Origin: Escherichia coli
GTDB lineage: Bacteria > Pseudomonadota > Gammaproteobacteria > Enterobacterales > Enterobacteriaceae
Assembly: GCF_003334815.1 (NCBI RefSeq)
Contig: NZ_QOWO01000027.1
Length of the DNA: 56,519 nucleotides
Direction: 5' to 3' (one strand)
The notes below the pieces were generated by a model. It made no database searches, was not told where the DNA came from, and saw only the letters and a list, made by a program, of their open reading frames with translations. Below are positions 12,576 through 15,828 of this stretch, piece after piece. The position numbers and the translations under genes were made by a program. The first letter of the stretch is position 1, and the number at the start of each line of letters is the position of its first letter.

Positions 12576-12600
12576 GTGCGCGCTGATGCCCTCACCCCGA

Positions 12601-12657
12601 CCCTCTCCCACAGGGAGAGGGAGAAAACACTCAAGGCCTTCTCCTGGAGAAGGCCTT
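12601..12657. terminator. Tandem inverted repeats between convergent ilvC and ppiC (terminator region)
   Basis: Two hairpins: ccctctccc-aca-gggagaggg and aaggccttc-tcctgga-gaaggcctt. The second has a T-rich tract on the minus strand, suggesting it terminates ppiC. Confidence 0.5.
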
Positions 12658-12661
12658 GCTA

Positions 12662-12967
<306 letters not shown>

Positions 12968-13141
12968 TCAGGCGGCGATTTTAGCATGATCCGCAGATGC
13001 TAACGTAATTGTCAGTCAGGGAGTGGCTGGTACATATATGGCAAAAGCCCGGAAAATCCGGGCTTCGCAGGTCCCTCAAGGGGAGAAAACTTAGGGCCTC
13101 TATGGGCTACAAAGTCATTATCGGGGATGGTTATTTTATTG

Positions 13142-13632
13142 TCAATTTATGAGCGATATGGCATTGATTGACTTGATGACCGCCCTCTGTATGTCTGCAA
13201 CCAACTCATGTGGCAAACATTGATTAAGATACCCTCTGTAAGTTCTTGCTCTGTTTAATCTGTTTCGACTGACTTGTTGTACCAGGTCGGCTTTGGCCCA
13301 ACGAATCTGCTGATCAAAGAATTGCAGGTCATTGATAACATTACTGGCTATTTCAACATGCATTCCACGTTTTAACTTGTCTGGTCGCGAGTGGTTGATA
13401 ATGGAACGACGATGCATGCGTTGCCATTAATTTTTCCGTTGAGCACGACAACTAACCTGTTTTTTATCATTTCAGGAGGAATGCGGCCATCGTAATACGT
13501 CGTGCTGAACGGTCCATTTTGGCTAACAGGATAGTTACCAAAGTTGCATTCCAGTATTTCACCAACCTTAGGGCTGAAATTAATCGCCACGAGTAAACCT
13601 CTCCTTAGTAAACTCTGAAAAAGTAATAACAC
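13142..13632 (-). pseudogene. yifN: Frameshifted PemK/MazF-family toxin remnant (yifN-like)
   Basis: Two overlapping minus-strand ORFs of 86 aa (13372..13632) and 91 aa (13142..13417) in different frames. The first carries a PemK/MazF-like N-terminal pattern (G.I....F...NRLVVVL...C.VVPLSTT). No antitoxin-sized ORF is visible next to it. Confidence 0.6.
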
Positions 13633-13806
13633 AACGTTACGACCCGATATTTTCTAAGTCTAATGGATTCACGATGAACTCCGATTTCGGTCTTCTCTCT
13701 CTGATTTAAACATCCGCAGCCAACCGGTTAGCGGCTTACACGCGGTCACATTCAAATGCGATTCTGCTACAATCCTCCCCCCGTTCGAAGATTGAGCAAT
13801 ACACCT

Positions 13807-15828
13807 ATGCGTCTAAACCCCGGCCAACAACAAGCTGTCGAATTCGTTACCGGCCCCTGCCTGGTGCTGGCGGGCGCGGGTTCCGGTAAAACTCGTGTTA
13901 TCACCAATAAAATCGCCCATCTGATCCGCGGTTGCGGTTATCAGGCGCGGCACATTGCGGCGGTGACCTTTACTAATAAAGCAGCGCGCGAGATGAAAGA
14001 GCGTGTAGGGCAGACGCTGGGGCGCAAAGAGGCGCGTGGGCTGATGATCTCCACTTTCCATACGTTGGGGCTGGATATCATCAAACGCGAGTATGCGGCG
14101 CTTGGGATGAAAGCGAACTTCTCGTTGTTTGACGATACCGATCAGCTTGCTTTGCTTAAAGAGTTGACCGAGGGGCTGATTGAAGATGACAAAGTTCTCC
14201 TGCAACAACTGATTTCGACCATCTCTAACTGGAAGAATGATCTCAAAACACCGTCCCAGGCGGCAGCAAGTGCGATTGGCGAGCGGGACCGTATTTTTGC
14301 CCATTGTTATGGGCTGTATGATGCACACCTGAAAGCCTGTAACGTTCTCGACTTCGATGATCTGATTTTATTGCCGACGTTGCTGCTGCAACGCAATGAA
14401 GAAGTCCGCGAGCGCTGGCAGAACAAAATTCGCTATCTGCTGGTGGATGAGTATCAGGACACCAACACCAGCCAGTATGAGCTGGTGAAACTGCTGGTGG
14501 GCAGCCGCGCGCGCTTTACCGTGGTGGGTGACGATGACCAGTCGATCTACTCCTGGCGCGGTGCACGTCCGCAAAACCTGGTGCTGCTGAGTCAGGATTT
14601 TCCGGCGCTGAAGGTGATTAAGCTTGAGCAGAACTATCGCTCTTCCGGGCGTATTCTGAAAGCGGCGAACATCCTGATCGCCAATAACCCGCACGTCTTT
14701 GAAAAGCGTCTGTTCTCCGAACTGGGTTATGGCGCGGAGCTAAAAGTATTAAGCGCGAATAACGAAGAACATGAGGCTGAGCGCGTTACTGGCGAGCTGA
14801 TCGCCCATCACTTCGTCAATAAAACGCAGTACAAAGATTACGCCATTCTTTATCGCGGTAACCATCAGTCGCGGGTGTTTGAAAAATTCCTGATGCAAAA
14901 CCGCATCCCGTACAAAATATCTGGTGGTACGTCGTTTTTCTCTCGTCCTGAAATCAAGGACTTGCTGGCTTATCTGCGCGTGCTGACTAACCCGGACGAT
15001 GACAGCGCATTTCTGCGTATCGTTAACACGCCGAAGCGAGAGATTGGCCCGGCTACGCTGAAAAAGCTGGGTGAGTGGGCGATGACGCGCAATAAAAGCA
15101 TGTTTACCGCCAGCTTTGATATGGGCCTGAGTCAGACGCTTAGCGGACGTGGTTATGAAGCATTGACCCGCTTCACTCACTGGTTGGCAGAAATCCAGCG
15201 TCTGGCGGAGCGGGAGCCGATTGCCGCGGTGCGTGATCTGATCCATGGCATGGATTATGAATCCTGGCTGTACGAAACATCGCCCAGCCCGAAAGCCGCC
15301 GAAATGCGCATGAAGAACGTCAACCAACTGTTTAGCTGGATGACGGAGATGCTGGAAGGCAGTGAACTGGATGAGCCGATGACGCTCACCCAGGTGGTGA
15401 CGCGCTTTACTTTGCGCGACATGATGGAGCGTGGTGAGAGTGAAGAAGAGCTGGATCAGGTGCAACTGATGACTCTCCACGCGTCGAAAGGGCTGGAGTT
15501 TCCTTATGTCTACATGGTCGGTATGGAAGAAGGGTTTTTGCCGCACCAGAGCAGCATCGATGAAGATAATATCGATGAGGAGCGGCGGCTGGCCTATGTC
15601 GGCATTACCCGCGCCCAGAAGGAATTGACCTTTACGCTGTGTAAAGAACGCCGTCAGTACGGCGAACTGGTGCGCCCGGAGCCGAGCCGCTTTTTGCTGG
15701 AGCTGCCGCAGGATGATCTGATTTGGGAACAGGAGCGCAAAGTGGTCAGCGCCGAAGAACGGATGCAGAAAGGGCAAAGCCATCTGGCGAATCTGAAAGC
15801 GATGATGGCGGCAAAACGAGGGAAATAA
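13807..15828 (+). CDS. rep: ATP-dependent DNA helicase Rep
   Basis: Track ORF is 690 aa; start placed at [31 protein letters not shown] to give the 673-aa Rep. UvrD/Rep superfamily 1 helicase motifs are present. Confidence 0.95.

Follow-up and report, generated by a model that had tools for sequence, protein, structure and literature searches.

The segment between ppiC and rep in the 56,519-nucleotide stretch of Escherichia coli DNA analysed here (hereafter the window; contig NZ_QOWO01000027.1) very probably carries the K-12-type null allele of a stand-alone gene of MazF/PemK fold, yifN, whose intact form is likely an RNase without a cognate antitoxin. The best explanation of the locus is that the window holds a recently disabled copy of this gene. 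A single-base deletion in codon 70 cuts the protein after the first half of its predicted beta-barrel, so that the strain lacks a functional YifN product. As judged from fold and invariant residues, intact YifN would most likely be a homodimeric, metal-independent endoribonuclease of the MazF type, and its activity is presumably narrow in targets, weak, or controlled otherwise. No cognate antitoxin appears to be encoded with it, unlike the situation of canonical MazF, Kid and ChpBK, and its control is probably independent of any adjacent antitoxin. The gene is dispensable, and its inactivation or loss has recurred in both E. coli and Shigella.

The window yifN occupies 13142-13590 on the minus strand. 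The two overlapping minus-strand open reading frames found there are the halves of one 149-codon gene split by a frameshift; this had been proposed in the first-pass annotation, and the ORF list together with the alignment now shows that a single base is missing. The elements of the broken gene are the following:

13142..13590, minus strand: yifN pseudogene, 449 bp (450 bp when repaired, i.e. 149 codons plus stop), delimited from RefSeq PGAP annotation, intact alleles and Pfam.
13372..13632, minus strand: upstream ORF, 86 aa when read from an upstream GTG, ending ...NRLVVVLNGKINGNACIVVPLSTTRDQTS.
13142..13417, minus strand: downstream ORF, 91 aa, overlapping the upstream ORF in another frame.
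13381..13382, minus strand: 1-bp deletion, the T of a CAT codon (His70) being missing.
13601..13606, minus strand: Shine-Dalgarno sequence AAGGAG, 10 nt 5′ of the GTG start at 13590.

In the upstream ORF, the native part begins at 13590 and corresponds to residues 1-69, including E40, R45 and S65. Past the deletion, this frame adds three wrong residues (QTS) and stops at 13372-13374. The first 11 residues of the downstream ORF are out of frame and the remainder is the native C-terminal half, residues 71-149. Alignment with the alleles of O157:H7 and strain 144 placed the lesion on the coding strand, where intact CGCGACCATGACAAG has become CGCGACCA-GACAAG in the window (written in full, CGCGACCATGACAAG to CGCGACCAGACAAG), and revealed no second lesion in the window yifN. 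The repaired product and the O157 protein are identical except for 2 of 149 residues. The start of the gene is the GTG at 13590, as chosen by PGAP, and not the GTG further upstream at 13632. Initiation signals at two yifN sites were reported in a Ribo-RET study, one being the annotated start and the other lying upstream in the same frame; the K-12 fragment is therefore translated and may not be inert.

The lesion is real, inherited and already catalogued. An exact 50-mer spanning the site is present in 1,228 complete genomes, among them K-12 MG1655, and a sequencing error was rejected as its cause on this ground. RefSeq annotates the 100% identical sequence of strain 52F4 as a ‘frameshifted’ pseudogene named ‘type II toxin-antitoxin system PemK/MazF family toxin’, and a PLoS Genetics paper mentions ‘a pseudogene yifN'’ at the ppiC-rep locus. 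The window yifN is thus a known, annotated K-12 pseudogene, and its detection here is not new.

The distribution of the alleles was followed in 5,426 complete E. coli genomes. Most of the yifN locus is held by 3,983 of them; the frameshift 50-mer is found in 1,228 and an intact 51-mer in 1,090. These two allele-specific probes together cover 2,318 of the 3,983 locus-bearing genomes, and the others presumably differ by nearby SNPs. The frameshift allele is a clade marker. In most other E. coli that have yifN the gene is intact, as had been anticipated for other strains: seven alleles from outside the K-12 group were examined (O157:H7, O111, strain 144 and four further lineages), and each of them is an unbroken gene of 450 bp. 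Intact alleles differ mainly at synonymous sites and are therefore maintained by purifying selection; pN/pS is 0.02-0.07 for comparisons with the most divergent allele, and most of the remaining pairs give 0.1-0.3. Besides the frameshift allele, at least four truncated forms occur in E. coli and Shigella. Their products break at different positions, from which we conclude that yifN has been inactivated repeatedly.

The gene is absent from about 1,400 of the 5,426 genomes, and its GC content is 42.8% compared with 52-53% for its neighbours. The description of this site as a conserved core position consequently needs amending: the locus is there in most E. coli, but as an old low-GC islet lacking from about a quarter of genomes, and yifN is not a core gene. 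At the common empty site (strain Nord8, L082 396-481) the ppiC-rep spacer is 86 bp long, and its sequence, the stretch just 5′ of rep included, bears no relation to the flanks seen where yifN is present. The presence/absence polymorphism is therefore old, and rep and ppiC have different promoter regions on its two sides. Another yifN-less strain, HH45 (L004 3040-3095), has a 120-bp ppiC-rep spacer that contains about 30 consecutive G followed by TACTTCCT and a run of C; it is matched over its full length in only one of the 5,426 genomes, HH45 itself, and could be either an artefact of assembly or the scar of a unique deletion. Outside the species, Superficieibacter electus shows the identical rep/yifN/ppiC order without a partner gene, its YifN being 84% identical and its Rep and PpiC 93% identical.

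The assignment to the PemK/MazF superfamily, suggested initially from an N-terminal pattern, is borne out by the frame-corrected protein, by the MazF folds heading the Foldseek list and by the PGAP naming. Repaired YifN matches Pfam PemK_toxin (PF02452) with E 1.1e-10 over residues 38-141 (model positions 15-108/109), and its homologues carry a precomputed PF02452 assignment. An AlphaFold2 model built from 37 homologues reached a mean pLDDT of 75.6, with low confidence in the beta1-beta2 loop (residues 20-42) that carries E40. When this model was compared with the PDB by Foldseek, the best 45 matches were all MazF-family toxins (MazF, MoxT, YdcE), with TM-scores to target of 0.59-0.79. They include Mycobacterium tuberculosis MazF-mt1, Staphylococcus aureus MazF, Bacillus subtilis MazF and MoxT, with E about 1e-5. 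The predicted fold of YifN is thus an SH3-like beta-barrel that carries a C-terminal helix and can be superimposed on MazF or Kid.

Four residues, E40, R45, S65 and R111, do not vary in the alignment of the 37 family members, and MAFFT places YifN E40, R45 and S65 on E24, R29 and T52 of E. coli MazF and on E20, R25 and T48 of B. subtilis MazF. A Glu/Arg/Thr set, as in MazF catalysis, is the signature of an active endoribonuclease, and the conserved MazF-like residues suggest that intact YifN would be one. Comparison of the YifN-family profile with single MazF sequences by hhalign gave negligible probabilities, and the residue equivalences between YifN and MazF consequently rest on MAFFT and the predicted fold. 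No NCBIfam family matched repaired YifN at E <= 1, so none of the curated MazF, ChpB or PemK models applies; no PADLOC model matched it, and no PDB sequence matched either the repaired protein or the family profile. Likeness to solved MazF proteins is visible only through the Pfam profile and the fold.

YifN proteins form a small, low-GC family that is often borne by mobile elements. Of 1.84 billion cluster representatives, 492 match at E <= 1e-3, and representatives of about 100,000 species yielded 48 loci. Members share a length of about 150 aa, the motifs PPEM(V/I)K-R, VVP(L/I)S and RWAK..(V/I)Q.VS..RL, and a solitary gene. The repaired window protein fits this description and is 44-85% identical to other members over its full length. 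JGI names them ‘uncharacterized protein YifN (PemK superfamily)’. YifN also matches PHROG 15698, a family labelled ‘unknown function’. Literature retrieved on yifN, COG3692, orphan MazF and leading-region PemK contained no functional study and no activity or toxicity experiment.

An antitoxin partner was sought at several levels. With a threshold of 20 aa, no ORF in the flanks of the window yifN exceeds 47 aa, and none has gene-like marks; the earlier remark that no antitoxin-sized frame is present holds. The distance of about 120 bp then given before rep is to be corrected, the intergenic region measuring 216 bp with rep starting at 13807. It had also been supposed that intact versions could carry a partner. 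The seven intact E. coli alleles have none: they are set in the same rep/yifN/ppiC layout, with no antitoxin gene beside them. No tandem or direct repeats of the kind that would form a type III RNA antitoxin were detected in the window or the homologous loci checked (TRF and repeat search).

We then clustered every neighbouring ORF of 40 aa or more that lies no further than 900 bp from the yifN homologue in 41 loci of other genera, drawn from Serratia, Photorhabdus, Xenorhabdus, Pseudomonas, Roseateles, Herbaspirillum, Rahnella, Xanthomonas and others. No recurrent adjacent ORF family emerged outside within-genus synteny. The few ORFs that tightly abut the gene upstream are, we presume, mutually unrelated: a Rep_3-like C-terminus, a partition-like protein and an AlpA-like HTH protein. 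Only ssb, encoded on the opposite strand, neighbours the gene in more than one genus. It lies 340-540 bp downstream in three loci of two genera (L038, L042 and L044; Xenorhabdus koppenhoeferi and Pseudomonas spp.), and such a downstream opposite-strand layout is typical of the leading regions of conjugative elements. At one metagenomic locus (L023), a 58-aa fragment that resembles the PrlF antitoxin lies 240 bp downstream, in this context only. When upstream regions were aligned across genera, no operator proved to be conserved beyond the E. coli/Superficieibacter pair. The complete 6.3-kb Glaesserella parasuis plasmid p1613, composed of a primase gene, the yifN-like gene, lnu(C), an IS, a relaxase gene and mobC, has no antitoxin gene anywhere, and a 55%-identical YifN paralogue carried by E. 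coli IncF/IncX plasmids is also solitary. In all contexts examined, the YifN family is thus solitary, without an adjacent antitoxin. Because no cognate antitoxin accompanies it wherever it is found, we regard yifN as a stand-alone ‘YifN family’ gene and not as the remnant of a two-gene operon.

Homologues occur on 119 PLSDB plasmids, of which 58 are conjugative. On p1613 (L079 520-2357) the homologue follows a primase-domain gene by 2 bp, and on a Shewanella surugensis contig (L054 22-711) it follows a Rep_3-like ORF by 4 bp. This spacing hints that YifN homologues may be co-expressed with replication functions on small plasmid-like replicons. In pCAR1 and related Pseudomonas elements, the gene sits among runs of small uncharacterised ORFs and an N6-methylase gene. 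A 73%-identical homologue lies on an element bearing Tn3, integrase and ParA genes (L027-L029 239-4468), flanked by the STM2767/STM2766 helicase pair (PADLOC ‘Helicase’) and by the candidate defence protein PDC-S32 (AbiJ_NTD4), a gene content that looks like that of a defence island. The divergent UvrD-like helicase of this mobile element belongs to the STM2767 family and has no real similarity to Rep, so the parallel with rep in E. coli was taken as coincidence and a functional tie between yifN and a helicase was rejected. Phage matches to YifN were three, all weak. In E. coli, Serratia and Photorhabdus, a lone chromosomal yifN stands beside housekeeping genes.

Around the window yifN, ppiC lies at 12662-12943 on the minus strand, leaving a gap of 198 bp downstream of yifN, and rep is annotated from 13807 on the plus strand. 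This rep start (MRLNPGQQ...) is used in every RefSeq record seen; the program-made ORF begins at an ATG at 13756, 51 bp further 5′. The sequence elements between these genes are:

13591..13806: divergent yifN/rep intergenic region, 216 bp, without antitoxin-sized ORF and without tandem repeats.
13745-13773, plus strand: rep promoter-like site, from a consensus scan.
13117..13145, minus strand: sigma-70-like promoter, TTGACA, 17 nt, GATAAT, 11/12 matches to the consensus.
13043..13063, minus strand: probable intrinsic terminator of yifN, GCCCGG-AUUUU-CCGGGC then UUUUGCC, from RNA folding.

The palindrome GCAGCCAACCGGTTAGCGGC, at 13716-13735 inside the divergent yifN/rep promoter region, is a possible operator. 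The sigma-70-like match at 13117..13145 overlaps the yifN stop codon and is directed at ppiC; if it functions as a promoter, as its sequence would suggest, ppiC expression in yifN-bearing strains may rely on islet-borne sequence. The hairpin at 13043..13063, about 80 nt 3′ of the yifN stop, has a predicted energy of -18.3 kcal/mol (z = -2.8) and is probably the yifN terminator; it escaped the consensus scan because its tail holds only 4 U. Upstream of ppiC, the direct repeat TAATTGTCAG (12962-12978 and 13006-13022) flanks a 44-bp segment that contains a perfect hairpin (TTAGCAT-N9-ATGCTAA) and is missing in strain 144; this segment looks like a small insertion or duplication. An Rfam scan of 12600-14000 matched no RNA family.

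The reading first attached to this locus was that of a decaying toxin-antitoxin module, and one part of it stands: the gene is toxin-like and frameshifted. Its other part, a former two-gene module, is contradicted by the 41 loci and by p1613. A classical type II operon whose adjacent antitoxin was deleted first and whose toxin was disabled afterwards would agree with Pfam and PGAP naming, since nearly all known members of the superfamily are antitoxin-paired, and with the PrlF-antitoxin-like fragment of 58 aa near the L023 homologue. This fragment occurs in one context only, however; intact alleles under purifying selection are just as partner-less as the window copy, the Superficieibacter rep/yifN/ppiC locus has no partner either, no neighbour is shared among the 41 loci, and p1613 is devoid of antitoxin. 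We therefore consider such a history improbable. Even less credit, indeed hardly any, can be given to the idea of a functional gene in two pieces, or of two ORFs that programmed ribosomal frameshifting would rejoin. The Ribo-RET initiation signals in laboratory strains and the fixation of the allele across a large clade of 1,228 genomes could be quoted for it, but the break sits in the middle of the predicted beta-barrel, all other lineages examined have a continuous ORF, and both PGAP and the literature call yifN a pseudogene. Programmed frameshifting in particular was rejected, as no slippery heptamer exists at the lesion (GAC CAG ACA AGT TAA) and other clades have different disruptive lesions.

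The two remaining alternatives concern the role of the intact protein. YifN could be a growth-arresting RNase restrained by a non-adjacent antitoxin, such as MazE, ChpS or some host factor, or else through proteolysis or tight repression. The conserved catalytic residues argue for this, repeated inactivation and loss are consistent with a costly gene, and OrtT offers an orphan-toxin precedent in E. coli (PMC4344625). Against it, yifN rides plasmids and ICE-like elements between genera, where a chromosomal antitoxin acting in trans would stay behind, and no candidate partner emerged; on balance this seems rather doubtful. Repurposing of a MazF-fold protein on mobile elements, for example in establishing a plasmid or ICE, in defence against phages, in anti-defence or in controlling the mRNA of replication genes, and not for addiction, can be entertained as a tentative possibility. 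It draws on the 119 plasmid records, on the gaps of 2 bp after the primase gene (p1613) and 4 bp after the Rep-like ORF (Shewanella), on the small-ORF setting in Pseudomonas and pCAR1 with ssb nearby in Xenorhabdus and Pseudomonas, on the homologue lodged between the STM2767/STM2766 pair and the PDC-S32 (AbiJ_NTD4) gene, and on the PHROG 15698 match. This evidence is one of genomic context, though, with no matching PADLOC model; phage matches are only three and weak, and E. coli, Serratia and Photorhabdus have it as a solitary chromosomal gene beside housekeeping genes.

For the window itself these results have little weight, as its yifN is an already catalogued pseudogene, and that in the best-studied of all bacteria. 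What value remains attaches to the family, which combines a predicted MazF fold and conserved catalytic residues with the lack of an antitoxin in about 50 genomic and plasmid contexts. Solitary YifN contradicts the assumption, built into the RefSeq name, that each PemK/MazF protein is one half of a type II module. At stake is whether antitoxin-free MazF enzymes exist and whether annotation pipelines mislabel such proteins as toxins. As a speculative extension, YifN proteins might constitute a distinct class of antitoxin-free MazF-fold endoribonucleases of plasmids, ICE-like elements and defence islands, with a role in mobile-element establishment, replication-gene control, or phage defence or anti-defence, and not in post-segregational killing. 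If so, the K-12 frameshift would represent the loss of one solo effector.

Among known systems, the E. coli toxins MazF (ChpAK) and ChpBK share with YifN the PF02452 family, the predicted SH3-like barrel with a C-terminal helix, and the equivalents of Glu24, Arg29 and Thr52. YifN is only about 23% identical to E. coli MazF and is longer (149 versus 111 aa), its beta1-beta2 loop having 25 additional residues; furthermore, mazEF and chpBIK are chromosomal type II pairs, whereas yifN has no MazE/ChpS-type antitoxin gene upstream. The best structural match to the YifN model is MazF-mt1 (PDB 6kyt, 5hjz; Foldseek E 1e-5). Like other long-loop MazF proteins, MazF-mt1 has an extended beta1-beta2 loop above the active site, a feature that the model also predicts for YifN. 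The two proteins are 13-16% identical, and MazF-mt1 has a cognate MazE where YifN has none. More distantly, the type III toxins ToxN/CptN have a similar Kid/MazF-like fold (4rmo, Foldseek rank 46, E 0.02); in type III systems a tandem-repeat RNA antitoxin precedes the toxin gene on its 5′ side, in contrast to yifN and the homologous loci checked.

Kid/PemK of plasmids R1 and R100, compared here by description only, is a plasmid-borne MazF-fold RNase and in this respect recalls the plasmid homologues of YifN. The parD locus of R1 adjoins the R1 replication genes, a position that may be likened to that of the primase- or Rep-adjacent YifN homologues of small plasmids. Kid is always paired with Kis, while plasmid YifN homologues are unpaired. 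A precedent for a toxin-family gene without antitoxin is OrtT (YdcX) of E. coli (PMC4344625); it differs from YifN by an unrelated fold and mechanism, being a membrane-damaging GhoT-like peptide.
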